64,000 nucleotides of DNA from Thermoplasmatota archaeon (GTDB lineage: Archaea > Thermoplasmatota > E2 > JACPAO01 > JAHFTW01), in assembly GCA_041601615.1 (NCBI GenBank), contig JBFIHX010000005.1, positions 40,774 to 104,773 on the forward strand. The letters run 5' to 3'. Both the position numbers and the translations under genes were made by a program. Each line of letters begins with the position of its first letter. Position 1 is the stretch's first letter. Under the pieces are notes generated by a model. The model was not told the DNA's origin, did no database searches, and saw only the letters and a list, made by a program, of their open reading frames with translations. Positions 9,803 to 33,900 of this stretch are shown here, in pieces.

Positions 9803-10231
9803 ATGGCAACGGGAATCAACGCCGCCAGGAAGCTGAAGAACGACCGGCAAAAGTTCCGCTGGTCGGACCGCTACTACAAGCGCCGCGAACTGCGCCTCAA
9901 GGAGAAAGCCGACCCGCTCGGTGGCATCCCTCAGGCCCGCGGCATCGTCGTCGAAAAGGTCGGCATCGAGGCCAAGCAGCCCAACTCTGCCATCCGCAAG
10001 TGCGTGAAGGTGCAGTTGATCCGCAATGGCCGCCAGATCACCGCATTCGCGGTCGGCGACGGCGCAATCAACTACATCGACGAACACGACGAAGTGCTCG
10101 TTGAGGGTATCGGCGGCCGCATGGGCCGTTCGTACGGTGACATTCCTGGTGTCCGCTACAAGGTCATCAAGGTCAACAACACCTCCCTCGACATGCTTGT
10201 CAAGGGCAAGATCGAAAAGCCGATGCGGTGA
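9803..10231 (+). CDS. rps12: 30S ribosomal protein S12 (uS12), archaeal type
   Basis: [22 protein letters not shown]...[27 protein letters not shown] is highly conserved archaeal uS12. Confidence 0.95.
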
Positions 10232-10890
10232 TCACGATGACTGACGAATCTATCATTCAGACGGAAGAACAGCTCGCGGAGGTCGCCGCAGAGGAGACCG
10301 CACCCGAGGAGCCCGTGGTCGTCCTGCCCGAGACCCCCCTCTTTGGTAAGTACGGCGCCGACGGCATCGAGATCCGCGACGTGGGCCTGGCCCGCTACAT
10401 TCGCCTCGAACTGGTCGGCTTGCCCCACAGCAGTGCTCGCCACGCCAACCGACGCTTTGCCAAGCAACGCGTCAACATTGTCGAACGCTTGATCAACAAC
10501 GTCATGCGCTCGGCTGCGTACAACGGCAAGAAGGGCAAGGCGTACAAGGTCGTCGAGGACGCTTTCGAGCGCATCGCCGAGAAGACCAAGGACAACCCGA
10601 TCCAGGCCCTAATCCGCGCTGTGGAGCACTCCGCTCCTCGCGAAGAGGTCACCCGCCTGCGCTACGGTGGCATCAACGTCCCCAAGGCCGTCGATGTTTC
10701 GCCCATGCGCCGTCTCGACATCGCTCTGCGCAACCTCGCAAAGGGTGGACTGGCTGGCTCCCACAAGAGCACCAAGCCCGCCGCCCACTGCCTCGCCGAT
10801 GAGATCATGAAGGCCGCCAAGGGCGACCCCGGATCCTTCTCGGTCGGTAAGAAGGACGAGCTTGAGCGCGTCGCCAAGTCTGCTCGCTAA
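10228..10890 (+). CDS. rps7: 30S ribosomal protein S7 (uS7)
   Basis: Conserved uS7 sequence (...[35 protein letters not shown]...). GTG at 10228 overlaps the S12 stop; the first ATG is at 10237. Confidence 0.95.
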
Positions 10891-10960
10891 GCTCGCAGCC
10901 TAGTCGACGCACTCAAGCATGGCGTCTTCGACGCCCGCCAGAGTCGGCACCGCCGACTCC

Positions 10961-10996
10961 GGCGAATTGGAACGCGTCGCCAAGTCTGCACGCTAG
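10961..10996 (+). repeat. Echo copy of the rps7 3' end (encodes [11 protein letters not shown]) about 70 nt downstream of the real stop
   Basis: Real end is ...gacgagcttgagcgcgtcgccaagtctgctcgctaa ([11 protein letters not shown]). Echo is ggcgaattggaacgcgtcgccaagtctgcacgctag. Most differences are synonymous. Confidence 0.6.
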
Positions 10997-11020
10997 AGCC
11001 TCGGCGTCTTCGAGAAAAAC

Positions 11021-11065
11021 ACCTTCACCCTCCTCTTCCAATCCTCTTTCCTTCGCTCCTATTTT
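11021..11065 (+). terminator. C/T-rich tract after the rps7 echo
   Basis: accttcaccctcctcttccaatcctctttccttcgctcctatttt. Confidence 0.2.
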
Positions 11066-11126
11066 GGGGTCGCTTGAAATGTGCGGCCCAATGTTCTTCG
11101 CCGTCGGCGCACGCCGGCAGGATGGG

Positions 11127-11540
11127 ATGAAGATGCACGAAACAACCACCGTGCGGTGGGTCCTCGTCGTGGACGATGATCCATTGCATCGGCTGCTGAT
11201 GAGAGACAGCGTAGAGCAAGCTGGGCCAACGAACACTTGGGTGCTGGAAGCGCCCGACGGAGCCACCGCTCAGTCGATTCTGGCAAAATTGCCTGCTCGC
11301 GCGGTGTTTCTCATGACGGACCGCAACATGCCGGGATCGATCCATGGAGACGCCCTTTTGGAAGGCCATCTTGCGCGCGGCGGAAGTGGAGTCTTGGTTA
11401 CTTCGGATGCACGATTCGTGGGGCATTCTCCTTACTGCATCCAGAAACCCGATCACATGACGGGCTGGGCCGAGCTTGGACGGCGAATCTTCACGGGTCC
11501 TCCGACCCATGCCTGGGCTCCATTGCTCATGTGTGGTTGA
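11127..11540 (+). CDS. Stand-alone response-regulator receiver (CheY-like REC) domain protein
   Basis: VLVVDDDPLHRLLMRDSVEQ...VFLMTDRNMPG... carries the REC acidic pocket and phospho-acceptor Asp context. Start ambiguous between 11064 and 11127. Confidence 0.5.
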   Translation: MKMHETTTVRWVLVVDDDPLHRLLMRDSVEQAGPTNTWVLEAPDGATAQSILAKLPARAVFLMTDRNMPGSIHGDALLEGHLARGGSGVLVTSDARFVGHSPYCIQKPDHMTGWAELGRRIFTGPPTHAWAPLLMCG

Positions 11541-11754
11541 TGAGGTGGGCTGGTGGCGCTGGTTGTTGCGGTCAGGGGTTTCCCGCGTCAAGGATGGGGG
11601 TGGAATGGGGCCTTGGGGCGCCGTGCTTCTTGTCCCGTGGCCCGGAGCGTCGAAGTCGCGGCTAAGTATCTCCGGATTAGATAGATCGGGATAGATAGAT
11701 AAGAACCACAGCCATCAGCCTAAAACGTACTGAACATTGTGGGACGCGATCGTC

Positions 11755-14700
11755 ATGCGAAAAATCATGGTCGTTTTCCTCGCTCTGCTGCTTCTGGCCA
11801 CTCCGTTGGCCGTTGCCCACAAATCCAACCACGAGATGCAGCACCAGGCGTGCGACGTGATGTGGATGACGCCCCATGGGCATGGCCCAGACGACGGCCA
11901 TCGACACGAACACGACCCGGACATAGCCGGCCCGGAGCACAAGGATCTGCACAACCACGACCCTTGCAACCAGAGCCGAATGACCTACCCGGACTACGAA
12001 AGTGTCGCGCCCATCACGGAAATAGATCCGCCGACCAAGGAGTTGGATCCGGAAGAAATCATCTGGAACGACAACGACGCGACCAACTCCGAGGTGTACA
12101 TCGGAGGCGAAGCGTACCAATTCCCCATCGCTCCCGGAACGTTCCAGGAGATCGATTCGCTGGTCATCAGCAGCAACGCTGACGCCGCTGCCCTCGCCGC
12201 CGCCGGAGTCATCAGTGGCACCGGCGACGAGGACGACCCTTACGTCATTCAGAACCTTATCGTGGGTCGTGCACTCATCATCAGTGACACGGACAAGTGT
12301 TTCGTGGTCAAGAACAACATTGTTGTTGATCGCGTGGTCGAAGCGCCCATCGTGCCGGACCCCGACGACCTCATTAATGTCACCAAGTTGATTCGTGAGC
12401 TCATCGAATTGATCGACGGGCTCCTGGCAGACATTGCCGAATACTTGGGCATCACGGAAGAACTGGAAGCGGCCCGCGCCCTCTGGGACGAGAACGCCAC
12501 AATCTGGGAAAACGAGAAGCTTGTGTGGGATGCCGAAGCGGCCGCCAAGCAAGCGCAATTGGCCAACATGAACGCCCGGTCTGCCTCCTACGACGCCCAA
12601 CTAGCGCAATGGCAACAGGATATCGCCAATTACGAGGGCAATTACCTCAATTCGATTGGCATCACTGAGCAACTCGCCTCCGACTTTGAATACTACATGG
12701 AGCAAATCCTCGGCTTCGACCCCACAACCGTGACGCAGCCGACCAAGTCGCACCAGCAATTCATCAACAACGGCCAAGTAGTCGACATAGGCGCGCTCCA
12801 GGACAGCTTCGAATCCTACCAGGACGATGCCAGCAAACTCATTGGCGCCGTCAGCGAGACCGGTCAGAATCCCTCTGAGACCAACTTTGACGTGCGCGAC
12901 ATGATCGACGAAAACCCGCCCGGTGCGACCCCGCCGGCCGGCTACTCCGGCTCCGACTGGAGCTCCGATTTGGCGCAATACGACGACTACCGTCAATGGA
13001 TCTTGGACGAAGTGACCAGCTACTGGGGCACCTTGAAGGCGGACGAGCCGGATTACGATGGTTTTGCCGCGTTCATGGAGGAGTACAATGGATTCCAGGA
13101 GGAGTACGCTGCCTTCATGGGAGAATACAACAGCTTCACGGCCAGCCACACGGCCTTCCAGAACGACTTCAATGCCTTCATGGACGACTACAGCAGTTTC
13201 CTCGCCTCGAACGCCGCATCCCTGGACGAATACAACGCCCTGATTGCCGACGCCGAGGCCGACATCGCGGACGCAGAAGCGCTCATCGACACCGTGCAAG
13301 GATTCGCCTGGAAACTGGGCGACCTCTTGTTCGAAACCATCGATCAAGTCCTAGAGCACCTCTTGACGCTCATCTTCGGCCTCATCGACCCACACGACCC
13401 GCACGAAGTGGCCAACAACAACGGCCAATTGGTGCTTGACTGGAACGGCCAGTGCCTGCACGTCTACAACAACGTGATCAACGACTTGCGCGTCAACCAG
13501 AACAACGATCGCACCGGCTTTGCCACCGGGGGCATCCTGGAGAACAATCGCATCTTTACGATTGGCCAGATCCGCCACTACGACGGCATCTTCCGCGACA
13601 ACGAAGTAGGCAACCGAGCCCACTTGTACAGTCTGATTGATCCGAACATCACCGCGCCGACAAACGACCAGTCGGTCAACAACGATGGCGCCAACCAAGG
13701 CTGGTACTTTGACAACGTCATCTACGGACAAGTGGACCTTGACTTCCACGGACACCACCACTCGGCGGGCTTCTTTGCCCCCGAGAGCCACTTCCATGGC
13801 TCGGTGTACCGTGAAGCCTACATGGTCAACACCGACGGTTCCTGCAAATTCACCCACGACGATCTGATGCCGATGCCCGGGCACCACCAGATGCACGAGA
13901 GCGACAACGACTTCGAGGTGCTGGGCGAAACCATCATTGATGGCCCGGACAACGAACCTTGCCTGCCGCATCATGACCACGGCAAGCGCTGGACATCCGT
14001 GTTTTTCAACGACAATGTGATCATTGATCCAAACGGGCTTGGTCTGCGTTTCGAAGACGAAAACCACCGCGCCGACGACGAGCAAGCGAACTCGGAGAAC
14101 ATGCGCGAGCTCAAGAAGCCGCACTTCCACCAGAAGTGGGTCCAAGTGGAAAACAACACGGTCGTGGGCAAAATCTTCATTGATGTTCTCAACGCCAAGG
14201 GCACGTTCCTGTGGAGCGACGACTGGAGCGAGGTGGAGAACACGGCCGGCATCGAACGCAGCATCGAGGCGTTGGATCACCCGGGTGCTCGCATCGCCTA
14301 CAGCCACCCGATGCGCAACGACGCCTGGCTGGATATCCAAAACAACACGGTGCTCCAGACGCAGAGTGTTGGTGTCTTGGTGTCGGATGCGGAGTTCATG
14401 ACGAAGCTTCAGTTGAACAACAACCGCGCTGTGGGCGCGCCGACCTCGATCTCGGGCTACAGCTTCGAAGCGCTGCGCGATTGGCTCTGGAATGCCCGGT
14501 ACGCTTCGGCCGCCTCGATTGCGGACGACGTGGACGACATGGGTTCCGGTGACCGCGGCGTGCAGAACTTTGTGCTCGTGCGCAATGCAATCGACAAATT
14601 CAACGTAGTCTTCTGTGGCAACACGCTGCACCGCTTGGACGGCAGTCTTGTGGCAACGGATCGGATCTACCAGGACGGTGCCAGCACCATCGATTACGAC

Positions 14701-15740: not shown

Positions 15741-15778
15741 ATGGGGTGAAGGAGAGGGGGAAGTGGAGAAGGATTCGG
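15741..15778 (-). terminator. Polypyrimidine tract on the minus strand (purine-rich on plus strand) just past the end of the giant-protein operon
   Basis: Plus strand ggggtgaaggagagggggaagtggagaaggattcggg, located after the stop of the 15786..16910 gene. Confidence 0.2.
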
Positions 15779-15785: not shown

Positions 15786-16910
15786 TTAGATAAGCGCCAT
15801 TTGGTAGCCGTTGCCGGTTGCGGCTTGGTGTTCAAGGGTGTACAAGTGGTACATGTGGCCCTCGGCAACACCCATGTTGTTGACGTCGAACACGAAGATC
15901 AGGAACTCGATGCCGTTGTTGATCACGGCAAAGTTGGCGCTGCTTGGGACCGATGCTTCGAGCACTGCCCGCTTGGCGCACGCGGTCAAGTCGGTGTCGC
16001 AGCAGCGGTTTGGATCCAATTGGCAGGGCACATGCATGGCCCAGGCGAGCGGCAGGACGGGAGCGTAGAGCACTTCGACGTTGATGGTGTCTGTGCGGCT
16101 CTTGCCGGGCACGCATCCAAAGAATTCAGCATCGTATTCTAGGCACACTTGTGCGCTGGCAATGGATTGGACGTAGCCCGTGTCGGCGGCGGCTTGCACT
16201 TGGAATCCGTGTGCTTCGTGGACGAACTCCAGCATGAATTTGATGACGATGTTGCAGATTCCGGGTTGCCCTACGATGCCGAAGCCGATGCGGTCGTCAC
16301 GGAAATCCATGAGATTTCCGGCGGTTTCGTTGTCGTGGTTGCCGCCCTTGGTGTAGCGCTCTAGGGAGTTGAGCGCCAGTGTGGGTGCAAGCATGTCGTG
16401 GACTTGCCCATCGATGCAGTCTGCTTGTAGGGTGACAAATTCCATGCCGCGCGAGGTTTGTCGCGCGGTCCACTGGTTGGTGCCTGTGGGTTGGGGAGCC
16501 TCGCCTGCTTCTCGATCCAAACTTGGGAACCATCCGTCTCCAGGTTCGATCCAGAATGCGATGGGTTTGAACATATCCGCAGTAATGTGGACCGTGCCGT
16601 TGACAAAGCCTCGTTGTTTTTCTTGCAGTTGCGGCAGCAGGGCATCGGTGGGTGCGTGGGCGATGCCGCTGTCGCGAAGATCTTCGACATCCTGGGCCAT
16701 GGGGTCGTCGGGGGTTCCCATGGTCAGATCCTGACCTATGCGGCTGATGGTCCAATCGATGGTCGTTTGGGATGTCTCAAGCACGGAGCGTTCCAGTTTT
16801 TGTGTGCTGGATGGGTTCAGCTTGAGGGCCACGCCGGTTACGAGTGGGACCGCGAGTGTGGCCGCGACCAGGAGGGCGAGTGTCATCTTTTGTTTCTGAT
16901 TCATGTTCAT
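15786..16910 (-). CDS. Secreted protein (374 aa), hypothetical; coupled to the giant protein by an ATGA overlap
   Basis: Signal peptide MNMNQKQKMTLALLVAATLAVPLVTGVA. Its ATG overlaps the TGA of the 4,717-aa ORF (caATGAacATGA on the minus strand). Confidence 0.55.
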   Translation of the reverse strand: MNMNQKQKMTLALLVAATLAVPLVTGVALKLNPSSTQKLERSVLETSQTTIDWTISRIGQDLTMGTPDDPMAQDVEDLRDSGIAHAPTDALLPQLQEKQRGFVNGTVHITADMFKPIAFWIEPGDGWFPSLDREAGEAPQPTGTNQWTARQTSRGMEFVTLQADCIDGQVHDMLAPTLALNSLERYTKGGNHDNETAGNLMDFRDDRIGFGIVGQPGICNIVIKFMLEFVHEAHGFQVQAAADTGYVQSIASAQVCLEYDAEFFGCVPGKSRTDTINVEVLYAPVLPLAWAMHVPCQLDPNRCCDTDLTACAKRAVLEASVPSSANFAVINNGIEFLIFVFDVNNMGVAEGHMYHLYTLEHQAATGNGYQMALI

Positions 16911-19900
16911 TGCCTCTTGAAAGCGACCACGTCGTCGTACCATCCAACGCCGCGGCCGCTTCTGCCGGCGTCTGGACTTGGGAAAACATCTCCGACGCCT
17001 ATGCGCTTGTCGGAGCCGGTTGTGATGGAGCTGGTGAAGGTGGAGTTGGTGTCATCGTCCAAGGTGACGGCGACGGAAGTGGAGGTCACTTCGACGCGGA
17101 CGAAGTGCCATTCCTTCTCGTTCTTGAGGCAGACGCCGCCTTCGCTGATGCGGGTGTTGCCGTTGTAGAGGTGGACGCGCCAGTCGCCGGCGTCGCAGTC
17201 GATTTCTTGGGAGGGTCCAAGAGTGACGGCCCAGCGGGGTGCGTCGTCGCTCTTGAGCCCGGATAGGATGGCCTGATGTTCTGGTTTGTTCAGGCTGTCC
17301 CCGATAGCGAAGGCGGCCTCGACGGTGTATTTGGAGCCGAGTCCGGTGGTTGGGAAGGAGGCGTAGGTGCGGCCGCCGGGGGATGTGGCTCCGGTGACTT
17401 GCAGGTAGCCGTTGCCTAGGAATCCGGATCCAGCGTAGGTCTTGAGGCCGCTGCCGGTTTCGGACCAACCGAATGCGGTGAGGGGTTGCACGAAGGTGTG
17501 GTCGTGTCGGCTGGTGTCCATGTCGATGCGTAGGCGATCGATGTCGACGGTGTTGGCGCCGCCGCCCGCTTCCACGGTTGCTGCGGGGCCGTCGGCGTGG
17601 AGGGGCACCCAGACGGAGGAGAGTTGGTCTCGTTGGATGAGGGCGTGGCCGTGGCGGATGAAGATGTCAAAGCGGTGCCAGCGGCTGTCGACGGAGCTGA
17701 GGATGGTCCAGTTTCCGTTGCCTTCTTCCACTTCGAGGGTGCTGTAGCGGACGCGGGCGCGTACCATCATGTCTCCGTCGTCGTTGCGCACGGTGAAGAC
17801 GGGGTCTTCGATGGCTGGTTTGGCTTTGATGCGGAATGTCAGGTGCGAGGAGGACGGCAGATCTACGGGAGGGCTCTTGGCGGCGAGGGTGTGGCCGGAG
17901 TCTGGTTGGATGGAGAGGTAGGTGGGTCCTCCGGCGGTGCCGAGTGTGTTGGTGTCTTGGAGGGTTCCTTGACCGATGGGTTGCCAGCCGTCGCCGCCGA
18001 GGATGGGTTGGTCTTCCAGTAGGTTGCGCAGGTCCGAATCGAGGAGGCTCACTTTGGGTGCGGTCCACATGGCGGATGCTGATTGCACGCGTGTGGATTC
18101 CAGCCGGATGGGGCCGGAGAGCGGTAGGGAGCCGAGGTATGTTTCGTCCAGGAACGCTTCCATGCGTCCGTCGGCGGCTATGAGGTCGAAGCGGTACCAC
18201 TGGGATTTGAGGGTGATGTTGCCGATGGCGATGCTTTGGTTTCCTACGGTCAGCGTTAGGGTGTTGCTGGCGTAGCGGAGGTGGGCGATGTCTCCTTCGT
18301 CGCCTTCGAGGGCTAGGAATTCGGTGCTTCCGGGGTTGGTTCCGGGGTTGCTCCATTGGGTCACGGTCAGCAATGCGGAGTGCGCGGCGAGGGGTGTGTG
18401 TAGGGATCCGCCGTAGGTGTAGCCAAGTTTCTGGGATGTTCCGTCGGGTCCGTAGCCGTTGTAGTAGTTGTGGGCGTTGCCTTGGGGTTGCATTTGTGCA
18501 ACTTGGGGTTGGATGCCGTCTTTGGCGAAATGGAAGGAGTGGCGCCATGCTGTGCTGCGGCCGTTGTTGGCGGTCACGAGCAGGGTCACTTCCTCTTGTT
18601 GGTCTTCGTCAAGGTCAATGGTTGCTTCGTAGCGGTTGCTGCCGACGGAGGTGAAGCTGATGGGTCCGAGCCGGCTGGTGGCTTGGATGTCCATGGTGGC
18701 GTCCGGGTGGGGTGGGGTGATTTCGAGGGCGAGCGTGAACACGCCGGGGTCGGTTTCGCTGGACCAGATGGTGGTGCCGGGCGTTGAGACGGAGGCGACG
18801 TGGCCGCTTACGGGCAATCCGAGGTCGCCGGAGCCGAGGCGGGTGGTGCCGGCAAAGCTTGGACTCAGGAGTCCGATGCTCGGTAGTTCGGCGTTCACGA
18901 AGATTTCGAGGACTTGGCAGGTGCCGGGGTTGCCTGCTTGGTCGACGGGGCAGAGGGTGTAGGTTGCCAGTTCGTTCGTGGGGGGCGTTGTGTCTTCGTA
19001 GCGGCTGGCGTGGGTCCAGGTTTCGTTGCTGGTGCCGCTGGTGCTTGTGCGTTGCACGAGGATGTGGCTAGGGTTGCGCTCGGCGAGGGTGTAGTCGATG
19101 CCGACGGTGCCGGATTCGTAGTTGATGCTGTTTGCGTCGAGGAGGGGGGCGGTGCGGTCTCCTTCGACTTGGCCTAGGTATATTTCGAGTTCGTTGGCGG
19201 CGCCATCGAGGACGCGGACGTAGGCTTGGAGGGCTTGGTTTTCGAGTTCGGCGGGGATGTCGAGCAGCGTTCCGGGGCCGGCGGTGATGAGCGGTGTGCT
19301 GTTGGCGTCGGGTCGTAGTTCGATGGCGTTCCAGGTGATGCCGGTGTCGACGGCGCCTTGGTCGTCAAGGGCGGTCCAGGTTTGGTTGATGCCGGCGGCT
19401 CCGATGAGGGCGGGGAGGCTTGGTGGGTCCTGGATTGCGGGGGCCACGAGGTCGATGACGAAGGCGGAGGAATGGTTGGTCCAGGTGTGGCCGGCGCCGT
19501 CTTGGCCGTGCAGAACGAGTTGGACTTCTTGGCCGTGGAAGCGGGTGTACTTGGTGTCGTTTAGGTGGATGGTTTCGTGGATGGTCAGGGTTTGGTTGCC
19601 GGATTGGGTCTGGATGGGTTCTGTGTCGCTGCCGTCGGTGGTTTGTAGGAACAACTCGAAGGTGATGGCTTCGCAGCCGCCGCTGACGAGTTGGCCGGCG
19701 GCGATGATGGGGCGGTAGCCGATGGCTTCGCCCATGGCTTGGATGTTGTTTCCGACTTCGCGGAAGAAGCCGTCGAGGCCGGGGAGGGGGTTGCCGAGGG
19801 GGTGGCGGCGGTCTACGACGACGAGGGTGGCGCCGGAGAGGAGGATGTTGCGTTCTTCTTCGGGCATGTTTTGGAGTTGGACTTGGGTCCAGTGTTCGCC

Positions 19901-22900
19901 GTTTTGGACCATGTCGTAGCCGTCGACGAGGAGGAGGTAGATGTCTTCGCCCCATTGCCAGGGGTCGATGGTGGCGTTTTCGCTCCATTCGGGGGCGTAG
20001 TGGGGTTCGGTGGTGGAGTGGACGGGTTCGACGGCTAGATTGCTCAGGACGCGCAGCAGGCGTAAGTCGTCGAGGCCGCTGCCGGTGTCCCAGCCGCTGT
20101 AGGTGACGTTGATGGGGCCGGTTTGGGGGCCGCTGCAAATGGTGGTCTTGGGAATCAGTTCGTAGCCGGGAACGTCGAAGTCGGTTTGGACGGATCCGAG
20201 GTTGTAGGTGGTCTCGTGTGTGACGTTGTCGATGGCTTGGACGGACACGTTGACGGTGGCGCCGGATCGGGTCGTGGGCGGCATGAGGGGTTGGCCCGAT
20301 TCGGCTTGGGTCTGCCCGCCAAAGATTGGGTCGCCGTTGCTGGCGATGGCGTGGCTGGATGCGATGCCGCTGGCAGCTCGGCCGGGGCCGGGGATGGGGT
20401 CGATGGGGGTCCAGGCGAGCAGGAAGCCGTTGGGGCCGGTGTAGAGGGGCAGGGTGGGCAGTGGGTCGATGACGGGGGCGGTGTCGTCGGGGATGAACGG
20501 TCCGATGGTTTGCTCGGTGCTCCAGCCAGCGTGGTCCACGACGGTGCCGTTGAATGTGATGGGCATGCCTTCGTAGGTTGCAAGCTCCGCGTGGCTCAAG
20601 GTGAACGGTTCACCGGGGGGTGCTTGGGCGCCGAGGCCGGTATCGGAGAGGCTTCCGTTCCATGCGGTGGTGGTGCCGAGGGGGCTTGTTAGGTGGATGC
20701 TGCCAGATACGACGCCGTTGCAGTGCAGGAGGGCGGCGTCGGTGGCTTGCCATTGGGCTTGGAGTCCGTTGGTGGGGTCGAAGAATCCGGTCGTGGTGGG
20801 TTGCAGCCATTCTAGTTCGGGGGCGTCGGCGTCGATGCTGGCGCGGCCCCAGCTGTTGTTGGTGGTGGCGATGTTGCCGGCCGTGTCTGCTCCCCGGAGG
20901 GCGTAGAATACGTCTCGGCTGGCGCCGCTGGGGGTGTGGAATGCGGCGATGCGGGGGAAGTCGCCACTCCAGTCTACGATGGTGTTGTTTTGGGCGAGGC
21001 TCCAGATTCCTCCGAGGCCTTGTTCTCGTTCTCGCAGATTGAGGTAGTGGGGGCTTTGGTTGTCGCTCATGGCGTAGCCGAATTGGCCGTAGCCGCTGCG
21101 GTAGCAGACGCCTTGGGGTCCGAGGGTGGGGGAGAGTAGGGGCGGGTTGGGGTCGGGGTCGCCGAGGTTGACGGTTTTGGTTGCGGTGTTGTTGGCTTGG
21201 TCCCAGACTTGGATGTGGGCGGTGATGTTGCCCACGAGCGAGGGCAGGAGCGGCACTTTCACTTGCATGGCGTGGCTCCAGTCGTTGATGTTCTGGGTGT
21301 GGTTGGCTAGTTGGTTGTAGTTGCCTTCGTCGCTGATGTGGATTCGGAATTGGTCCACGAAGCAGGTTTCGGCGGGCTCTACGAGGTCGTACAGGAATGC
21401 GAGGTCCTTGTTGGGGAGCTGGCCGTTGGTGGGAAGGGGAATGTGGGTGTTGGGGTAGTTTTCCCAGAGGCCCACGCCGTAGTTGAAATTCGAGTTGACT
21501 CGGATTTGGGGGGCGTCGTTGTCGAAGTGAATCTTGTAGCTGGCTTGCCGCAGCGCTTCGAAATGGGTGGCGCCGAGACCCTGTAGGTAGGCGGGCGTGT
21601 ATTGCATGCCGTTGCCGGCGCGGTCTTGGGCGTCGACGACGAGGAACGTCTTGGCGATTTGATCTCGGGTCAGGGCGTCGAATTGGTGGCTTTCGAGGTT
21701 GAGTTCGTTGGCGGTGTGGTGGATGGTTGCGAGGACTTCCATGGTGCGGTTGAGGTGGACCATGATGAGCCGGGCTTGCTTGATGCCGCTGGGTTCGTAG
21801 GCACTGGCGGAGCCGCTGGGTTTCCAGTCTTTGGCGCCCCATTCGATGGGTTGGTTGTTGTTGGGTCCGAGGCAGAGGAAGTCGCCGGCGTGGATGTTGA
21901 GGGGTAGGGGGGCTTCTGTGTCTACGATGATGCGGCCGGTGGTGTTTTCGGTTTGGTGGCCGGCGCGGTCTTTGGCCCAGACGCGGAATTCGAGGTGGCG
22001 GCCGAGCACGCTTTGGACGACGGTGGAGTTGATGGTGCCGGTGAGTACGGTGGTCGCGGTGCCGATGGTGGGGCTTTGGTGGTCGAGGGGTCGCCAGATG
22101 CCGGCGCCACTGACGCGGTATTCGAGGGTTGCTTCTTCGATGCCGCAGTTGTGGGTGCGTTCGGCGTCGATGGGGCGGTCGTCGACCAGGAATTGCACTT
22201 GGAGGCTGCCGTCGGGGGCGAGGTCTTTGGTGCCGAGGTAGGATGGGGTGGTGCTGTTGGGGTCGGGTAGGAGCCCTTCGGTGCTGCCGAGGCCTAGGAG
22301 GCGGGGGCCGGAGGTGTCTACGACGACGTTTTGTATGCTGGCGATGGCGGCGTGTCCGGCGTGGTCGATGATGTGGCCTTGGATGGAGTAGGATTCGCCG
22401 TCCACGTAGGCTTCTGGGGGTAGGGTCCAGAGGTTTTGTTGGTCGTTGAAGGTGGGATTGAGCAGCGGGTAGGTTTGGTTGCTGATGGCGCCGGTTGCGA
22501 GGACTTGGAGTTCTGCGATTCCGCTGGCGCGGTACGCGGGGTCGGTGCCCCAGTTGCCGCGTGGGTCGTAGCTGCGGTAGTAGATGCCGGCGTCGGAGCC
22601 GGATAGGCAACCGGCGTTGAGTTCTAGGACGGGGCGGGTGCGGTCGACGAGGATGCGGCTGCCGGTCCAGGGGCCGGTGGTTCCGGTGGGGTCGACGGCG
22701 CGGCCTTGGATGTGGATGGTGACGCCTTCGGGTACGTCGGGGAGTTTGACGAGGCGTTCGCTGCTGAGTCCTTGGTTGTCTATTTGTCCGGTGCTTGTGC
22801 GGGTGGCAAATTCGTATCGTATGCCTGGTTCGAGGTCGGTGCCGAGGGCGATGAGGCTGGTGTTGCCGTGGACGGCGAGGGTACCGTCGGGTAGCAGTGT

Positions 22901-25900
22901 GTGGGGAAGGCCTGCGAGGTTTCCGGGGTGCAGGGTGGCTGCGCTGCGGTTTTGGGCGGTGACGAGGAGGTCATCCAAGGTATCGAAGGTGAGGTCGCGC
23001 ACGAGGTAGGCGTATTGGGTGACGAGGGGCCATTGGAGGGTGTTGTGGATGCTGGCGGCTTTGGTTTGCTCGGCGGGTGCCTCTTGCCAGCCGCTTCCGG
23101 TGTCAACGTGGGTGACGGTCCAGAGTACGCGGGACTCGGTGCCGGTGGTGAATTGGAAGTTGTGTGTGGCTTCGCCGTTGGGGTTTTGGACTTCCACGGT
23201 GGCGATGCGCCCGGGGGTGCCCAGGAGGCCGGTTCGGTCGGTGGTGTTGAGTGCTTGGAGGGCGGTGATGAGGGCGTCGAGGGTGGTGGCTTCGGGCAGG
23301 TCTACGCTGGTGTTGTAGAATGTGCCTTGGAGTCGCACTTGTTGCACGGTGGCGGCTGTGTGGATGTCGAGGCGCACATTGGCGTCGGCCGGGGCGGCGA
23401 GGTCTACGTCGCTGGCGGGGATCATGCCGTCGGCGGCGATGGTGGCGGCGAGTGCTGCGATGTCGGTGGGTTGCCAGGGGGTGCCGTTGTGGCTGAGCGC
23501 TTGGGTCTGGCCGCCGCTGGTTCCAGGAGCGGTGAGGGCGGCAAGGAGGGTGTTGTTGCCTTGGGTGGGGTTGGCGAAGGTGCCGGTGCGGATGGTGGTG
23601 GCGGCATTGATGGTGTTTTCTTGTACGCGGTCGCGGGCGGCGGCGGGGGTGGTGGGTGTGAAGGGGTTGGGGGTTTGGATGCGGTCTTCGACGGCTTCTA
23701 GGGCGATGCCGACGGCGGTGTCGGTGATGCGGTTGTTCCAGAGCAGCATGTCGGAGGCGCCGGAGAGGCCGGTGACGGAGAATCCGGATTGGCGTGCTTC
23801 GGTGACGGTGTTGTCGCGTACGAGGCCGTGGCTGTCGTGGAGGATGGCGGCGGAGCGCAGCATGCGGTCAAACAGGGTGTTGTGGATGCGTACGTCGCTG
23901 CCGGTGGCGAGGATGCCGAGGGTTTGGTCGGCAAAGGCGCAGTGGCGCACGCGCACGGTGGCGTGGGCGGCGAGGATGCCGAGGTGGCCGGGGCGTACGA
24001 TCCAGCAATCGGCCAGGTCGAGTGTGCCGCCGCGTACTTCGATGCCGGCGGCGAGGCCTTGGGCGCGCACGCCGGTGCCTTGCAGGGTGCCGGTGACGTG
24101 GACGGGGAAGCCGTTCAGGCCGGCTGCGGGGGCTAGTGTGGCGTTGATGAGGTGGAGGATTCCTTGGACTTGGAGGGTGCAGGTGCGTCCGCCGCAGTCG
24201 GAGGCAACGAAGTCTACACCGGTGAAGGTTCGTTCGTCGCCGGCGGGGATTACGAGGTCTTGGTCGAGGAGGATGGGGCCGGTGTGGAATTCGAGTTGGG
24301 TGAGCGTCAGGTCGGAGAGGAACGGCGCGGTGCTTAGGTCCCCTTGGTAGGCGGCGACGCGGATGGGGTCGCCGTTGCTGGTGACGGGGGTGGGCATGAT
24401 GCGGTGGATGTTCCAGGTGGCGTTGGCCCAGTCGTCGCCGACCAATTGGGTGGCGAGTTGGAACTGCGGCGCGAGGTGGGTCACGTCGAGGAATGCGAGT
24501 CGGGAGCCTTCGGAGTCGCCGGCAAATCCTGGTGCGGCGCGGGCGGCGAGGGGTTGCCAGGGTCCGGTGCCTTGTTGTGCCATGAATTGGGCGTGGGTGC
24601 CGGTGGGCAGGTCGTATTCGTGGGCGAGGACGAGGCCGGCTAGGGCTAGGTCTGCATCGATTTCGATGTGGGCGAGGGGCAGGATGGGCGAGGCGCCGAG
24701 GGGAGTTTCTTGGCTGCTGCTGTTGAGCGGGGTGATCTTGATGGCGGTCACGGGCACGGGGTTGAGGTCGGTGCGGGGGATGCTGTCGGCGGCGCCTGCG
24801 ATTTCTAGCAGGGTTTGTTCGATGAGGGGGCGCACGTCGAAGCCTTGGAGGCCGAGGCCGGGGGCGGCGGGGGTGATGCTGCGGCTGGCAAGGAATGGGG
24901 TGATGGGGGTGTTGGATCGGGGTGTGTCTGCGAGACGCATGGGGAGGGTTTCGCGCTCGGTGCGGGCGGGGACGGTTTGGCCGTATTCGTTGGTGCACCA
25001 GAGGCCGACGCGCGTCGGGGGCGTGGCGCCCGTGGCTCCGTTGCGGGTTTCGTTGTGGAGGGTGCCTGCGGGGCCGCCGTTCCAGGGGAGGGTGTGGCTG
25101 ATTTCGCGTTCGAGGTGGGGTGCCGTGTCGTGGTCCGTGGAGGGGTCGATCCAGCAGGTTTCGCCGTCGGCGGTGGTGGTTTTGGTGGTTTGGACGGTGC
25201 CGGTCTCGTCGCGCACGAGGTGGTCGGGGTTCCAGCGGCCGTAGATTTGGGAGGATGTGATGGCGGCGTCTTTGGCGCCGACGCTGCGGCCTTCGTGGCC
25301 CATGTGGCCAAGGGCGCTCAGATCACCCGCGTCGAAGCGGAAGGAGTCGGCTGCGGCGGCGGGGTGGGGCACTTTTTGGCCGGCGACGTTGGTCCAGTAG
25401 GGGTTTGCTTCGAGGTGGTCGCGGACGTTTTTGGCAAACAGGGCGACCACGTCGCGCAGGGCTTCCAGTAGCTCGGCATCGTCGGCGCCGCTCATCCATT
25501 GGGTGCGGTAGAATGCCTCGAATTCGCTGTGGGTGCCGGAGGAGCTGAACCAGGAGTCGGGGTCGTAGTCGACGGGCACGGTGGCGACGTGTTGGAGGCG
25601 GTCGTCGCGGGTGGTGAGGGTGTGGGTGGTGCCGTCGAGTTTGTAGGTCATGGGGGTGCCTTTGCCGAGGCCGAATACGGTCATGGCGAGGGCTTTGCCG
25701 TCGACGACGAGGGCGTGGGTGCCGGTTTCGTCTTGGTAGGTGGTGGCGTGGTTGGTGCCGGCGAGTGCGCTCCAGGCTTGTTCGATGGGGTGGTTGGTGT
25801 TGCAGGCGGCGCCGTTGACTGGTCGGCCTCCTTTGCAGGCGATCCAGTTGTCGAGGTCCACGGCGAAGGTGCCGGGGTGCCAGAGGGGGTGGACGGTGCG

Positions 25901-28900
25901 GCCCATGTCGTTCCAGAGTGCTTGGCGGGGGCCGTGGAAGTCCATGGTGGCTTCGAGTTGGTAGTGCCAGCCGTTGGTGTCGCCGCAGTTGGTTCCCGTG
26001 GGGAGGGGGTCTTGGAAGGCGCTGACGTTGTGGACGGTGGCGCCGCGTGCGGCGTAGTATGCTTCGATGGCGGCGATGCGTTGGCTTGCGGTGGTGGATG
26101 CGGTGAAGGTCTCCCAGGGCGCGGTTTGGCATCGGACGCCGTCGCGGGTCCATGTGACGTTGGTGCCGGTTTCGAGGGTGGTCCAGCCGCCGTTGTTGCT
26201 GCCCCAGAGCAGGTTGTCGTTGGCGGTGTCGGCGGTGCCGATTTCCTGGTCCCAGCGGTTGCTGCCGGTGGATGTCCAGGGGCAAGTGGTCATCCAGCGT
26301 GGCGTGGATTCGAGGTTCCAGGGCACTTGGCTGTCGCTGTGGCGTTCTTCGCAGGTGCGGTGGTGGGTGCCGAGCAGGAAACTGGTGTCCTGGTGCATGT
26401 CGGAGAGGTAGCTGCGGTCGACGCGGACGGTGGCGGGGGCAAACCATTCGAGGGCGTTTGCGTCCACGGCGGGGTTGGCTGCGACGGCGGTTGCGTAGTT
26501 GGTGGCGGTGGCAAACAGGGGTGTTGCAAGGTGTTTGGCCCAGTCGGCTTGCCAGCCGGATGCGGTGCCGTCGACGAAGCCGGTGTCGCGGGGGCGGATG
26601 ATGGTGCTACCAAGGTTGGGGTCGTAGGCTCCGCTGCCGTCTGCTTTGGAGGTCCAGCCGGTGCCTTCTTCGAGCACATCGAGGCAGCGGAGGGCGTTGC
26701 TGGGTAGGTCGCGGGCGCAGGCTTCGGAGGCAACGAGCATGGCGCCGTCGGCGCTGCGCACTTCGAGTCGTCCGGGGGCGGTGTCGAGGATTTTGTCGTC
26801 GTCCCAGACTTGGACGTTGGCTTCGAAGAATTCGGGTTGGATCCAGGCGTAGCCGGCGCTGGACATGGCGTCAACGTCGGGGGTTTGGGTTTCGGTGTCC
26901 CAGTAGGCGATGCCACGGGCGAAGCGGGCGCGGTCTACGTTGGGGTGGATGGGGGCAAGGTAGGCGTCGGCGGCTGCCCAGCGTTCGCCTGCAAGGTTGG
27001 CGTCGCTGGCGTCGACTCGGGGCAAGTCTTGGGAGTCGGCGAGAGGTTCGTGGACGAAGCTGTCGCGGTAGCCCCAGGCGTCCAGTGCGAGCGCGGGTCG
27101 GTCTAGTTGGGCATAGGCCAGTGGCAGCATTTGGTCTTCGGCGGCTTCGCGCACCAAATCAAGCGCGGAGGCTTGGCCTATGCTGCTGGAGCCGTCGAAT
27201 CGGATGTCGGAGAGTGCATCGATGGATGCTAGGTGGGCAAGCAAGGGGTCCAGGAAGCCGCTGCTGGTGAGGCCGAACGGGATGATGGTGTAGGTAATGA
27301 AGCCGTGGTCGCGGTCGTGGCTGCGTTGGCGTGATTGCATCAGGACGTGGCCGCTTCGAGACAAGGAGACGGTGTCGCCCAGTGCGGGGTCGGAGAGTCC
27401 GGGAATGGTGGTGCCGCTGGTGGCCACGGGTGTGCTGTTGCGGTCCTCGAACATTCGGTCGCTGACGTCGCGGGGCAGGTCGGTGGGTTTCTTTTCCAGG
27501 ATGTAGACGCCGTCGCCGTCGGAGGTGGGAACGATGATGCGGCATTCGGCTTCGGTGACTTCGATGCAGACCACGAGGATGGCGGCTTCTAGGTGGGCGT
27601 CGAATTCGTGGGTCATGACGGTTTCTTCGTTGGGTTGCGGGACGTTGAATGTGTACATCTTGCTGCATGCCGGGAGGGTCGGTTGCAGGCCCAGTACGGC
27701 GGCGTTGCTGGGTTCCATGCGCAGTACGAGTTGGTCGGGGATGCCGTCCGTGGTGCCGGCGGCGAGCAATGCGTCGATGTGTGCGGCGCTGTTGCCGCTG
27801 TAGAGCAGGTTGCGGACCGTGCTTGCGCTGGCGCCATGGCCGGCGCCCAAGTCGCAGGAGTCTGCTGCGGGGCCGGTGCGCATGGGCAGGGCGGTTTGTC
27901 CGGGTCGGGCAAACAGAGCGGTGGGGGGATCATTGCCGGTGCTGCCTTTGAGGGTGTCTTGGGCGGTTCCGAGTGCGAGGGGTAGGCGGTCGGGGGAGGC
28001 GGTTTGGAGGCCGCCGTCGAGGCCGGGGATGGGGGTGCCGTACAGGCCGTAGAGGGGGTTGGGTAGTTGGTGTAGGCTCGCGACGGTGGAGGGTGTGATG
28101 CTGGCTGGAATGGATGCGAAGTGGTCGCCTTCCATGTTGTCTAGGTAGCGCCAGTGCACGGCGGTGGCTAGGGGGTAGCTGCGTTCGATGCCGTAGTAGA
28201 CGAGTGGGTATGTGGGAAGCAATTCTGGGGTCTCGCTCGTGTCCTGGGATGGCAGTCGTGGATCTACGAGGGGTAGGGGGTAGGAGACCTCCGGTAGGCG
28301 CAGATTGTTGGGGTCGATCTGGAACATGGGCAACGGGATTTCCTGGTACTCGGAAGGGTCCACGTTGACGCCGGTGGTCAGCAATTCTTGCCAGTCCACG
28401 GATGGCGTTTCGATGGCGAGTTGCCACAGGTCGCCTCGGGGCGCTGTGAGTGCGATTGAGTCTGGGCGTTGCGGGTAGGCGCGTGGGCCCATGGTGTTTG
28501 TTGCGCCGCCGCTGACGCTTGCGTCCGGCGTCGATACATCCTTTGTTTTTTCCTCGAAGTAGGGACTGAAAAACGGCACGATGTCGTAGGAGAGCGGCAA
28601 AGAGGCGTGGAAGCGGGCGATGCCGGCGGCGTCCGTGTCGGCCCAGTGGGCGCAGACGTTGTGGTCGTTGATCTCCATCATGGTGCTGCGAACCTCGTGG
28701 AGGTCCTTCAGATTCAGAGGGGTTGCCAGGCATACGGCGGTGCCGGGTACTGGTGTGTCGGGGGCGACGAATCGGTGTACGTCTAGGGCGGTGCCGACGG
28801 AGATGCTGAGCGGTAGGCGCAGGCTCGCCGCGTTGGGCGTGGAGATGGTGATGTCGCCTGCGTACATTCCGGGCAGCAGCCAGGGGCTGGGCGGATTCGA

Positions 28901-31045: not shown

Positions 31046-31140
31046 GGGGACACCGGCCAAGAAACGCCCACCGGGGGCCCGACGCCGCGCATGCGCGATG
31101 GTCGAGACCAGAAGGCTACCGCAACATCCGGGGATGCTAC

Positions 31141-31553: not shown

Positions 31554-33755
31554 ATGGGACGCAAGGAAGACAACATCAAGAAGGCCACCGAGATCATGCA
31601 CAATCTCGACGGCATCCGCAACATCGCCATCGCGGCGCACATCGACCACGGCAAGACGACGTTCTCCGACAACCTGCTGGCTGGCGCCGGCATGATGTCG
31701 GCGGACCTTGCTGGTGAACAGCGAGCCCTCGACTTCGACGAAGAAGAGCAAGCCCGCGGCATCACCATCAACTCCGCGTCCGCCTCGATGGTGCACACCT
31801 ACGAAGGCAATGACTACCTCATCAACCTCATCGACACCCCCGGTCACGTTGACTTTGGTGGCGACGTAACCCGCGCCATGCGCGCCGTCGACGGCTGCAT
31901 CATCCTGGTGTGCGCCGTGGAAGGCCCCATGCCGCAAACCGAGACCGTGGTGCGCCAGGCCCTTCGTGAGAAGGTCCAGCCGACCCTCTTCATCAACAAG
32001 GTTGACCGCCTCATCAACGAGCTGAAGGTCACGCCTGCCCAGATGCAAGAGCGCTTCGTCAAGCACATCAACAAAGTCAACCAGCTCATCAACGCCAACC
32101 TCCCGAAGGAATTCAAGGGCAAGTGGGGCGTTCGCATCGAGGACGGCACCGTCATGTTCGGCAGTGCCTACCACAACTGGGGCATGTCCGTTCCCTACAT
32201 GCAAAAGCACAAGATCGGCTTCGCCCGCATCTTCGAACTTTGCCACGCCAACGACGAGAAGCAACTCGCCAAGGAATGCCCCATCGCCGATGTTGTACTG
32301 GACACCGTGGTTCGCTCCCTGCCGAGCCCCAAGGTCGCCCAAGAATACCGCATCCGCCACATCTGGCACGGCGACCAAGACAGCACCGCAGGCATCGACA
32401 TGCGCGAAGCCAAGAGCAAGGGTGTCACGACCTTCATGGTCACCAAGATCATGATGGACCCCCACGCTGGTGAAATCGCCGTCGGCCGCCTCTTCTCCGG
32501 CGCCCTGACCCGCGGAGACGAACTGTTCATCGCCGGTACCAAGACCAAGAACCGCGTCCAGCAAGTCGGCATGATGATCGGCGCCGACCGTGTGGCCGTC
32601 GACAAGATCACCGCCGGCAACATCGCCGCCGTCACCGGCCTGCGCGATGCCATGGCCGGTATGACCCTCACCAGCGACACCGAGATGGAGCCCTTCGAGC
32701 GCATCATCCACGTCAGTGACCCCGTCGTCACCGTCGCTGTGGAAGCCAAGAACATGCGCGACTTGCCCAAGCTCGTCGACACCCTGCGCAGTGTAGCCAA
32801 GGGTGATCCCAGCCTGGTCCTTTCGATCAACCAGGAAACTGGCGAGAACCTGATGAGTGGCATGGGTGAACTCCACTTGGAAATCATTCAGCACCGCATC
32901 GAGCGCGACTACAAACTGGAGATCATCTGCTCCACGCCCATCGTCGTGTACCGAGAGAGTGTCTCCGCTACCAGCCCATACCCCTTCGAAGGCAAGTCCC
33001 CCAACCGCCACAACCGGTTCTACATCACCGCCGAACCCCTAGACGAGGCGATTGTCAAGGGCCTGCACGACAACACCATCCCGAGCGAAGCCAAGAAGCA
33101 CGCCAAGGAAATCGAGTCGATCATGTACAACGAGTACGGCTGGGAGAAGGACATGGCCAAGAAGGTCAAGGCCATCGACGGCACCTGCATGCTCGTGGAC
33201 GCCACCAAGGGTATCCAGTACCTGCACGAGACCTTCGAACTGATCACGGAAGGCTGGAAGGAAGTCATCAAGGCCGGCCCCCGCGCCGGCGAACCGGTCC
33301 AAGGCGTCCTGTTCAAGCTGACCGACGCCAAGCTCCACGAGGACGCTGTCCACCGCGGCCCCGCGCAAGTGATTCCCGCCGTGCGCAACGCCACCTACGG
33401 CGCCATGACCACGGCCAAGTCCATCCTGATCGAACCCATGCAGAAGGCGGTCGTCACGACCCCCGACGACGTCATGGGCAACGCCACGCGCGAGTTCCAG
33501 AGCCGCCGCGGCCTCATCCAGGACATGCAACAGGAGGGTGATTCCACCACCATCACGGCCAAGACCCCGGTCGCCGAGATGTTCGGATTCGCCGGCGCCA
33601 TCCGCTCCGCAACGGGCGGCCGCGCCATCTGGTCCACGGAAAACCTAGGCTTCGAAGTGCTCGACATGGCCCTTCAGGACAAGGTCACGCGCCAAATCCG
33701 CGAACGCAAGGGCCTCAAGCCCGACCCGTACCCGCCTGAGTATTACGCTGAGTGA
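31554..33755 (+). CDS. fusA: Elongation factor 2 (aEF-2)
   Basis: GTP-binding motifs AHIDHGKTT, DTPGHVDF, NKVD. Full-length 733 aa archaeal EF-2. Confidence 0.95.
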   Translation: MGRKEDNIKKATEIMHNLDGIRNIAIAAHIDHGKTTFSDNLLAGAGMMSADLAGEQRALDFDEEEQARGITINSASASMVHTYEGNDYLINLIDTPGHVDFGGDVTRAMRAVDGCIILVCAVEGPMPQTETVVRQALREKVQPTLFINKVDRLINELKVTPAQMQERFVKHINKVNQLINANLPKEFKGKWGVRIEDGTVMFGSAYHNWGMSVPYMQKHKIGFARIFELCHANDEKQLAKECPIADVVLDTVVRSLPSPKVAQEYRIRHIWHGDQDSTAGIDMREAKSKGVTTFMVTKIMMDPHAGEIAVGRLFSGALTRGDELFIAGTKTKNRVQQVGMMIGADRVAVDKITAGNIAAVTGLRDAMAGMTLTSDTEMEPFERIIHVSDPVVTVAVEAKNMRDLPKLVDTLRSVAKGDPSLVLSINQETGENLMSGMGELHLEIIQHRIERDYKLEIICSTPIVVYRESVSATSPYPFEGKSPNRHNRFYITAEPLDEAIVKGLHDNTIPSEAKKHAKEIESIMYNEYGWEKDMAKKVKAIDGTCMLVDATKGIQYLHETFELITEGWKEVIKAGPRAGEPVQGVLFKLTDAKLHEDAVHRGPAQVIPAVRNATYGAMTTAKSILIEPMQKAVVTTPDDVMGNATREFQSRRGLIQDMQQEGDSTTITAKTPVAEMFGFAGAIRSATGGRAIWSTENLGFEVLDMALQDKVTRQIRERKGLKPDPYPPEYYAE

Positions 33756-33786
33756 GGGCGCAGCCCGAACGGGTGTAATACTCAGG
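33735..33786 (+). terminator. 12-bp stem hairpin formed by the fusA 3' end (cctgagtattac) and a downstream complement (gtaatactcagg)
   Basis: Arms at 33735-33746 and 33775-33786 are exactly complementary, with the loop containing the stop codon. Confidence 0.35.
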
Positions 33787-33829
33787 AGCGAGGCCCTCGG
33801 GCCGAGCGTCGCTGCGGCCCACTTGTGGG

Positions 33830-33859
33830 CCGTATGCGCCTGAGTATTACGCTGGGTAG
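33830..33859 (+). repeat. Echo copy of the fusA 3' end (encodes PYAPEYYAG*), about 75 nt after the true stop
   Basis: Real end ccgtacccgcctgagtattacgctgagtga versus echo ccgtatgcgcctgagtattacgctgggtag. The echo could also pair with the 33775-33786 arm. Confidence 0.55.
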
Positions 33860-33900
33860 GCGAATTCGCGGCCCTGGGCGGCGGAATTGGACCGCCTCGA

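Follow-up and report, generated by a model that had tools for sequence, protein, structure and literature searches.

Why does the 3' end of a conserved ribosomal protein gene appear a second time, shortly behind its own stop codon? This question is raised by rps7, the gene for ribosomal protein uS7, in a 64-kb stretch of DNA from a GC-rich Thermoplasmatota archaeon (the whole stretch is called the window, or WIN, below). The encoded uS7 is 96% identical to that of a metagenome-assembled genome (MAG) from beach sand, and the other close uS7 relatives likewise belong to uncultured Thermoplasmatota. An ortholog of rps7 in locus L104 matched Pfam Ribosomal_S7, and its neighbour matched Ribosom_S12_S23 (L-numbers denote relatives' loci or Logan contigs). 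The rps7 open reading frame (ORF) ends at 10855-10890 with GAC GAG CTT GAG CGC GTC GCC AAG TCT GCT CGC TAA, and the second copy, here called the echo, reads GGC GAA TTG GAA CGC GTC GCC AAG TCT GCA CGC TAG at 10961-10996. Between 10858-10890 and 10964-10996, 28 of 33 nucleotides match, and both segments comprise 10 codons and a stop. A repeat search recovered the pair as 33 nt of 85% identity at a spacing of 106 nt, with a longest exact shared core of 17 nt. A degenerate form of the 33-nt pattern has exactly two sites in the 64 kb and none in 100 shuffles. All four differing codons of the 10 are synonymous, the stop changes from TAA to TAG, and the codon bordering the shared stretch changes from Asp to Gly. 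A sequence-only reading of this DNA had reported such a repeated end with mostly silent substitutions, an altered stop codon and two palindromes between the copies (10921-10935 and 10941-10959), and all of these features were confirmed.

On balance, we favor the view that the echo is the displaced, untranslated former end of rps7, pushed downstream by a recurrent process of module insertion. One line of evidence is the way in which gene ends and echoes differ. We compared 16 gene-end/echo pairs, part of them found by protein-level scans, and counted 88 nucleotide differences that amount to 67 synonymous and 7 non-synonymous changed codons. Random placement of the same changes gave 55.9 ± 3.6 non-synonymous codons, with a minimum of 42 in 3000 simulations. 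The ten rps7 echoes that were found at the nucleotide level alone behaved alike, with about 30 synonymous against 3 non-synonymous changes. The differences include switches between codon families, Ser AGC to TCN or the reverse and Arg CGC to AGG, and most echoes retain a stop codon. Since a non-coding copy decaying in place should collect mostly changes of the non-synonymous type, this pattern suggests that the echoes are, or until recently were, under coding constraint.

This constraint does not seem to stem from translation of the echoes themselves. Echoes lie 55-182 nt behind the real stop codon across loci and in all three frames (e.g. 106, 101, 94, 138, 75 and 55 nt); the rps7 echo reads in frame +1 relative to its gene, and this frame is closed by a stop codon between the two copies. 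In L020, in-frame stops precede the echoes by 6-8 codons with no start codon between, and the sequence upstream of echoes is unrelated hairpin DNA. Because the offsets vary, in-frame stops come first and the upstream sequence is unrelated, echo translation appears unlikely. The sequence-only reading had spoken of an alternative or displaced functional 3' end. The displaced end is supported by the coding-type conservation across many genomes and by the orthology of the echo to the real ends of relatives, described below, whereas an alternative end in current use lacks support, given the frame, the preceding stops, the variable offset and the lack of any long ORF running into the echo.

Comparisons of filled and empty sites, which revealed sharp insertions of 94-125 nt, bear on which copy came first. 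Loci L050 and L014 are 91% identical; the 59 nt before the gene end are 100% identical, the last 33 nt carry 7 differences, and a 125-nt insertion follows. The L050 echo matches the real end of L014 at 25 of 27 bases, while the present end of L050 matches it at only 21 of 27. A similar picture emerged for the window and L001: their gene bodies are 91% identical and their echoes 97%, with homologous downstream flanks, whereas the present ends (the last 33 nt) are 73% identical and the spacers unrelated. The present end and spacer of L001 instead resemble those of L045 (88% over the tail; hand-aligned, the available 37 nt of L045 spacer agree at about 84%), although the two gene bodies are only 81.5% identical. 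At aspS, the gene for aspartyl-tRNA synthetase (AspRS), the window's echo differs from the real end of the sister genome L103 at 10 of 66 nt, all synonymous, and the window's own end differs from that L103 end at about 14 of 66 (hand counts); the echo and the L103 end have Pro as well as AGG, TTG, GCG and CTG codons in common. A fourth comparison, L008 with L009, yielded a clean 94-nt insertion and is silent on which copy is older. No empty-site relative was found within the window's own lineage. In three of the four comparisons, then, the echo looks like the resident ortholog and the present coding end like the newcomer, and on these alignments the phylogeny of the modules disagrees with that of the genes. 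The reading frame of rps7 is nevertheless intact, with a full-length uS7 that ends at TAA, the echo ending at TAG, and the present end is the divergent copy both in WIN/L001 and in L050/L014.

The anatomy of the region points to what may have arrived. From 5' to 3', the coding end (A) is followed by an inverted copy of it (A'), two small hairpins, the echo (A2), a short inverted partner of the echo (A2') and a C/T tract (Table 1). The inverted copy directly after the stop codon and the inverted partner of the echo are both additions to the sequence-only reading. In the minimum free energy (MFE) fold, A pairs with A', which places the stop codon at the tip of a long predicted hairpin; the 191-nt end region folds with a z of -3.7 relative to shuffles. 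In the window, A' complements A at 23 of 28 positions as against 18 of 28 for the echo (hand count), and in every case examined it complements the present end and not the echo. Its extent also equals that of the echo, some 30 nt at rps7 and some 60 nt at aspS. Together, this pairing and shared extent suggest that what arrived was the present end together with its inverted copy and both small hairpins. The 11-mer GGCGTCTTCGA of the first small hairpin occurs again behind the echo, at 11003-11013.

Table 1. Positions in the window of the rps7 end, its echo and the related modules at other genes
Feature	Position	Strand	Description
rps12	9803-10231	+	Directly upstream of rps7; from the ORF list
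rps7 (ribosomal protein uS7), complete	10237-10890	+	From the ORF list; 96% identity to a Thermoplasmatota MAG
A, present coding end, 10 codons and TAA	10858-10890	+	5' arm of the hairpin spanning the stop codon; putative incoming substitute end
A', inverted copy of A	10891-10918	+	3' arm of the hairpin; repeat search gives 29 nt (10890-10918), 79% complementary
Perfect small hairpin GGCGTC-TTC-GACGCC	10921-10935	+	From sequence, repeat search and fold
Hairpin with core GAGTCGGC-ACC-GCCGACTC	10936-10964	+	Core at 10941-10959; inverted-repeat search
A2, echo, (G) and 10 codons and TAG	10961-10996	+	Putative displaced original rps7 end, untranslated
A2', short inverted partner of the echo	11003-11014	+	MFE fold pairs 10967-10978 with it
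Pyrimidine (C/T)-rich tract	11022-11060	+	26 nt after the echo; such tracts follow gene ends in this genome
fusA (EF-2) module	33726-33859	+	End PYPPEYYAE and stop (33753-33755); echo PYAPEYYAG and stop (33830-33859), 104 nt downstream
aspS (AspRS) module	41646-41860	+	21-codon end, stop 41709-41711; 21-codon echo 41795-41860, 149 nt downstream
polB case (gene 51440-54406)	51161-51484	-	Last ~45 nt of the gene and a 68-nt hairpin-rich 3' stretch in three tandem copies
Monothiol-glutaredoxin-like gene (CGFS motif), stop at 59859	59840-60038	+	94-nt tandem units

Scanning the window for direct repeats at short range and for ORF ends echoed at the protein level revealed the same layout at four further genes: fusA, aspS, polB and a monothiol-glutaredoxin-like gene. 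Exact echoes of five residues plus stop were obtained for 16 ORF ends versus 2 control matches, and reverse-strand and upstream controls gave nearly no matches. As at rps7, where 73 nt separate the two copies, direct repeats of the gene end flank the insert at aspS and fusA. The fusA module contains an inverted partner (33771-33786) and two hairpins, one with a CTTG loop, and a C/T tract follows its echo. At aspS, an inverted copy of about 55 nt (41712-41766) precedes a hairpin at 41768-41785, and the real end lies in a stem of about 60 nt; over its 21 codons, the echo shows 16 synonymous and 1 non-synonymous codon changes. The whole aspS module is identical in an independent Logan contig (L102). 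The polB units recur with a 113-nt period at 91-98% identity, each with two hairpins, and by their similarity look like a young version of the same phenomenon. Each unit at the glutaredoxin-like gene carries (G)ELxxxLGEAQD plus stop and a hairpin; the echo GELEDVLGEAQD plus stop stands against GELSEMLGEAQD plus stop, and a third copy is truncated.

Related modules occur in other genomes, at folD in L010, fusA in L106 and aspS in L107 and L108; no fusA echo was seen in L005, L012, L015 and L017. Behind aspS, L107 (2848-3048), like the Logan contig L108, has four consecutive units ending in DRVTP and a stop, namely GACCGCGTTACGCCGTAG, GATCGGGTGACCCCGTAA, GACCGAGTCACCCCGTAG and GACCGCGTTACGCCGTAG in this order, which differ in synonymous codons; each folds as the 5' arm of a separate hairpin whose loop holds the stop codon. 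In L106 (4109-4262), the fusA echo is split by a 30-nt perfect palindrome of the TCCGGACCTGC-AAG-GCAGGTCCGGA type that is flanked by a 6-nt duplication, GACGCG, a configuration suggesting that small palindromes insert on their own.

For rps7 itself, we fetched relatives via uS7 and tallied the 23 clade loci with enough downstream sequence. An echo was present in 10 of them. L020 (6254-6830) and L046 (2255-2800) hold arrays of 3-4 rps7-end units with periods of 120-233 nt, in which every unit has its own inverted partner, extra hairpins occur, degeneration increases downstream, and AGC-type and TCN-type serine codons alternate from unit to unit. Modules at different genes also have hairpins in common. 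The 10-mer GTGCTTGCAC has four unique occurrences in the 918 kb examined, each inside a module and each at a different gene: L001 5887 (rps7), L010 7554 (folD), L106 4152 (fusA) and L107 2890 (aspS). Its hairpin has a CUUG loop closed by G-C, and the outer stems differ yet stay complementary, that is, they covary. A one-base variant lies at L003 4439, likewise in a module; the hairpin is not enriched in the window. The hairpin GTCGGC-loop-GCCGAC, in turn, is found only in the rps7 and aspS modules of the window (2 matches against 0.23 expected in 64 kb). Since these hairpins are common to modules at different genes, the modules of different genes and genomes appear to be related, whereas each A' is specific to its target gene.

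We propose the following course of events. A 106-nt module would have inserted about 33 nt before the original stop codon of rps7, composed of a substitute for the last 10-11 codons and the stop (A), its inverted copy (A') and two small perfect GC-rich hairpins. Because the module would supply its own in-frame end, uS7 would be unchanged, and the old end would be pushed downstream together with its short hairpin partner and the C/T tract. The rps7 module would belong to a family of hairpin modules at the 3' ends of conserved genes of this archaeal clade, and members of this family may stack into arrays, come and go among close relatives and pass from one lineage to another. As to the mechanism of insertion, we infer, as the preferred possibility, that DNAs of different lineages recombined at the conserved gene end, guided by homology. 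One way would be a Campbell-like or unequal exchange between a two-copy donor and the single end of the recipient. Alternatively, repair synthesis could copy a foreign homologous end, fold back, thereby making A', and return to the resident template. Either route would keep the recipient's end downstream, leave sharp boundaries at the repeat and let arrays grow at the coding side, and either would bring together copies from different lineages, so that the copies would differ in the way alleles of different lineages do. Plain duplication of a unit in place seems to occur too (polB, and fusA in L106). Deletion between the repeats would restore an empty site, in keeping with the scattered occurrence of modules among relatives that are 91-96% identical in the gene body. 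In the 3' untranslated region (UTR), the added hairpins probably stabilize or terminate the mRNA, a role that would explain why modules persist.

Several observations weigh against this proposal. Neither the ORF list nor Pfam revealed a recombinase, a transposase or any other gene in or beside the inserts. The rps7 echoes are 18-33 nt long depending on the lineage, contrary to one fixed crossover point. Near-identical copies at polB, at fusA in L106 and at rps7 in L006 fit duplication in situ, and so does the window's fusA echo, whose 2 non-synonymous changes resemble ordinary decay; insertion of modules and plain duplication may thus be mixed. No donor with exactly the window's A and A' was found, the rps7 and aspS end mimics occur in no IMG/VR viral contig, and exact-protein look-ups with four candidate products found no match for the window's rps7 echo in a second assembly. 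Finally, the protein-level scans behind part of the echo set bias it toward synonymous patterns.

A bolder form of this proposal is tentative and, in our estimate, falls short of probable: the modules could represent a new class of gene-less hairpin modules of 60-150 nt, with the final 6-21 codons of essential, conserved genes as their homing site. Such a module would combine a folded target mimic with a substitute end, so that its insertion would be harmless. Entry would take place at the coding side, and arrays of displaced ends would record past gene ends. Spread between lineages could occur, possibly as folded single strands, via a host recombinase or repair pathway, and conserved stable hairpins such as the GTGCTTGCAC core may double as mRNA 3' stabilizers. 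No description of such echoes turned up in full-text literature searches, which were not aimed at such echoes, and the layout appears to be undescribed so far.

Could the duplication have arisen entirely in place? Slippage, template switching or palindrome-induced break repair might have copied the gene end with its 3' hairpin in tandem, followed by neutral divergence, with neither foreign DNA nor function involved. The young sets at polB (91-98% identical), at fusA in L106 and at rps7 in L006 speak for such an origin, as does the non-synonymous decay of the window's fusA echo. Template-switch repair moreover typically leaves direct-inverted-direct layouts, and hairpins created by template switching have been documented (PMC8794818, PMC5453318). 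At rps7, however, the features of a simple duplication are missing; they are present at polB and at fusA in L106, and these two cases may be simple duplications. Neutral decay predicts about 56 non-synonymous codons among the 74 that changed, and 7 were observed. The present end and the echo are also not sisters, as the echo groups with the real ends of relatives (L050/L014, WIN/L001 and aspS WIN/L103), and the switches between Ser and Arg codon families would be too slow to arise in place. Neutral in-situ models with gene conversion as the sole explanation were rejected by argument, since even their best case gives a per-site non-synonymous to synonymous ratio of 1:2, far from that observed. 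Duplication in place is therefore an unlikely general explanation.

We hold it to be improbable to the same degree that the insert is a miniature, non-autonomous integrative element that relies on a recombinase encoded at another place and specific for a site or a structure; the A:A' hairpin would then mimic the target, and the present end and echo would correspond to attL and attR. Much of the architecture would suit such an element. On either side of the insert lie direct repeats of 18-66 nt, within the range of archaeal attachment (att) sites (29-69 bp, PMC6563490); the insert brings a new stop codon, has sharp boundaries and has empty counterparts in relatives; the arrays resemble tandem accretion, a hairpin core is common to modules at four genes in four genomes, and integration into the 3'-distal part of protein genes, EF-2 among them, is known from archaeal elements (PMC6563490). 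Yet no integrase was seen, the target-specific A' means that the mimic would have to be rebuilt at every new gene, the echo boundaries vary, no free or viral form with the rps7 or aspS mimic was found in IMG/VR, and an insert of 60-150 nt is far smaller than any known integrative element.

A further possibility is that the rps7 3' UTR acts as an RNA device, in which A' would pair with either the coding end or the echo and translation to the stop codon would switch the downstream fold and so affect termination or stability, or how the next gene is expressed; pairing with A' would then be why the echo is kept. Consistent with this, the 191-nt region folds far better than its shuffles (z above), A' is complementary to both A and the echo in L032, L020 and L046, one compensatory change between L001 and L045 preserves the A:A' stem (CGT to CGG with ACG to CCG), and the hairpins have stable CUUG-type loops. 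Pairing cannot, however, produce a synonymous-only pattern with period 3, and the Ser AGC/TCN switches break it (L001, L005, L020, L046 and L050). In addition, the window's A' is clearly the better match to A than to the echo, the whole device is absent in 13 of the 23 relatives, and no Rfam family matched at the gathering score in the window, where local matches were at chance level only. We therefore consider an RNA device quite improbable as the reason for the echo.

It is less probable still that the assembler joined two co-occurring haplotypes of the rps7 end in tandem. The sample does contain closely related strains, a Logan contig with an identical rps12 (L105) stops within rps7 near 10779, a point of difference between the window and L001, and several MAG contigs break right behind rps7 (L007, L009, L011, L016 and L045). 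These frequent breaks in or after rps7 suggest strain-level polymorphism of the junction in the source communities. Logan contigs of run SRR29257386 match this genome. Against a false join, assemblies by MEGAHIT, SPAdes, JGI and Logan, made in different studies, contain this architecture, an orthologous echo and flank are common to the window and L001, and independent Logan assemblies agree at every base with the aspS modules of the window and L107. The spacer, furthermore, consists of an inverted copy and hairpins rather than gene sequence. The longest exact word between the copies is 17 nt and de Bruijn assemblers normally use k-mers longer than this, so a false join at that word is unlikely. 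Lastly, translation of the echo, whether at the close of a small ORF (e.g. the ATG-initiated one present in the window from 10919 to 10996, 25 amino acids) or through recoding, would accord with its coding-type conservation, stop codon included, but is hardly credible given that its offset from the real stop differs among loci, that the L020 echoes follow in-frame stops without a start codon and that the upstream parts of such ORFs would be unrelated hairpin sequence.

The sequence-only reading had also taken the echo as the left boundary of a 20-kb island. In the window, rps7 and fusA lie about 20.6 kb apart (10891-31553), separated by genes for giant proteins. The interval shows a strong reversal of GC skew, and its genes include a weakly response-regulator-like one, an ORF of 1062 amino acids without a Pfam match and a β-helix ORF of 4717 amino acids on the minus strand (16907-31060). 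Pfam revealed no mobile-element genes in the island or near the other modules. The island itself as the inserted element was rejected: only two rps7-end copies exist in the window at the nucleotide or protein level, and a third was not found at the island's far end (nucleotide search with up to 3 mismatches; protein search with up to 1 mismatch in six frames). Because the same layout occurs at aspS, fusA, polB and the glutaredoxin-like gene without an island, it is not a specific marker of an island boundary, and its position here is coincidental at best. A comparison of the rps7-fusA junction, likewise suggested by that reading, showed that the two genes are adjacent in distant relatives; in these archaea, with fusA directly behind rps7, no echo layout is present.

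The C/T tract behind the echo has counterparts elsewhere. Relatives that lack an echo have it almost directly behind the rps7 stop codon (L004, L010, L014, L015, L017-L019 and L025). Five such tracts of 34-85 nt occur in the window, at 1867-1911, 11022-11060, 33895-33950 and 50272-50356 on the plus strand and at 15741-15774 on the minus strand. They sit just 3' of gene ends, between co-directional genes, and follow rps7 in most relatives; possibly they are terminator or 5'-leader signals. A search for an intrinsic-terminator consensus (GC stem and T run) gave no match on the plus strand at 10000-12000, and no tRNA or tmRNA that could serve as a target was found in the window. The next called ORF behind fusA (33825-34775, eIF2-alpha) probably begins in reality at the ATG near 33948, and the fusA echo falls within its 5' extension.

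If the displacement of gene ends is borne out, conserved archaeal genes would hold short fossil copies of their former ends, and a recurrent process would graft new ends and hairpins onto genes harmlessly. The echoes would then mark recombination between lineages at base-pair resolution and reveal a route by which genes acquire 3' UTR hairpins; the modules might even be very small mobile DNA that uses target mimicry instead of an encoded enzyme. In practical terms, echoes break metagenome assemblies at core genes, with contigs that end at rps7, and can mislead gene callers, as with the fusA echo within the extended ORF at 33825.

Several known systems invite comparison. A known structured RNA family was rejected on the Rfam result given above, and a diversity-generating retroelement was rejected too: the third-position changes are of all kinds and not confined to adenines, and no reverse transcriptase domain was found among the scanned neighbors. 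Casposons are kilobases long, encode PolB and generate target duplications of 14-15 bp. The modules resemble them in the use of a conserved translation-gene 3' end as target, in target duplication and in tandem insertions. Casposons, of which family 1 lies at the EF-2 gene, are described as self-synthesizing transposons with terminal inverted repeats and a Cas1 homologue as integrase (PMC6563490, PMC4046053). A casposon was rejected here, as no Cas1 or PolB genes lie between or beside the repeats and, by eye, the spacer ends show no inverted repeat. Template-switch mutations (PMC8794818, PMC5453318) account for an A' beside its source and for perfect small palindromes. They leave the direct echo and the synonymous-only differences unexplained.

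The REP/BIME sequences of bacteria are small, GC-rich imperfect palindromes that lie after stop codons, often clustered, in hundreds of dispersed copies with an associated RAYT transposase, and probably stabilize mRNA 3' ends. The modules are similar to them in having palindromes just after stop codons and a hairpin core common to copies at different genes; they are unlike them in duplicating the neighboring coding end and in that copies of the core are found only in association with modules in the 918 kb. The CTX-phi attP site and the attC sites of integrons are folded single-strand attachment sites in which a hairpin stem mimics the duplex target. The modules likewise have a hairpin whose stem resembles the target; their order of target copy, inverted copy, body and target copy is what integration at such a site would leave, and new units would enter at the proximal end of an array as they do there. 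In contrast to them, the modules have no XerC/D- or IntI-type motifs, no identified recombinase, a nearly empty body and gene-specific stems.

The closest parallel comes from Thaumarchaeota, in which mobile elements integrated in the 3'-distal part of protein-coding genes restore the ORF with their own sequence and are bordered by direct repeats that represent att sites or target-site duplications (PMC6563490). EF-2 is a favored target of such archaeal elements, and tandem insertions are known (PMC6563490). The modules differ from them in being 60-150 nt long, with no integrase or gene, in starting with an inverted copy of the target end, in striking at least five genes in one 64-kb window and in repeat copies that differ at synonymous sites. 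For an attL/attR pair, an integrase or a gene-sized body is missing: the 73 nt between the rps7 repeats contain no notable ORF, and the neighbors carry no recombinase domains. The flanking repeats, the restored frame and stop and the precise empty sites (L050/L014 and L008/L009) are all there. As in the 3'-distal archaeal elements, a repeat of the gene end flanks the insert, a new end with a different stop codon is provided, empty sites exist, insertions stack in tandem and translation genes, EF-2 among them, are targets. By this analogy, gene ends displaced through insertion at gene 3' ends would be equivalent in outcome to the formation of attL and attR.

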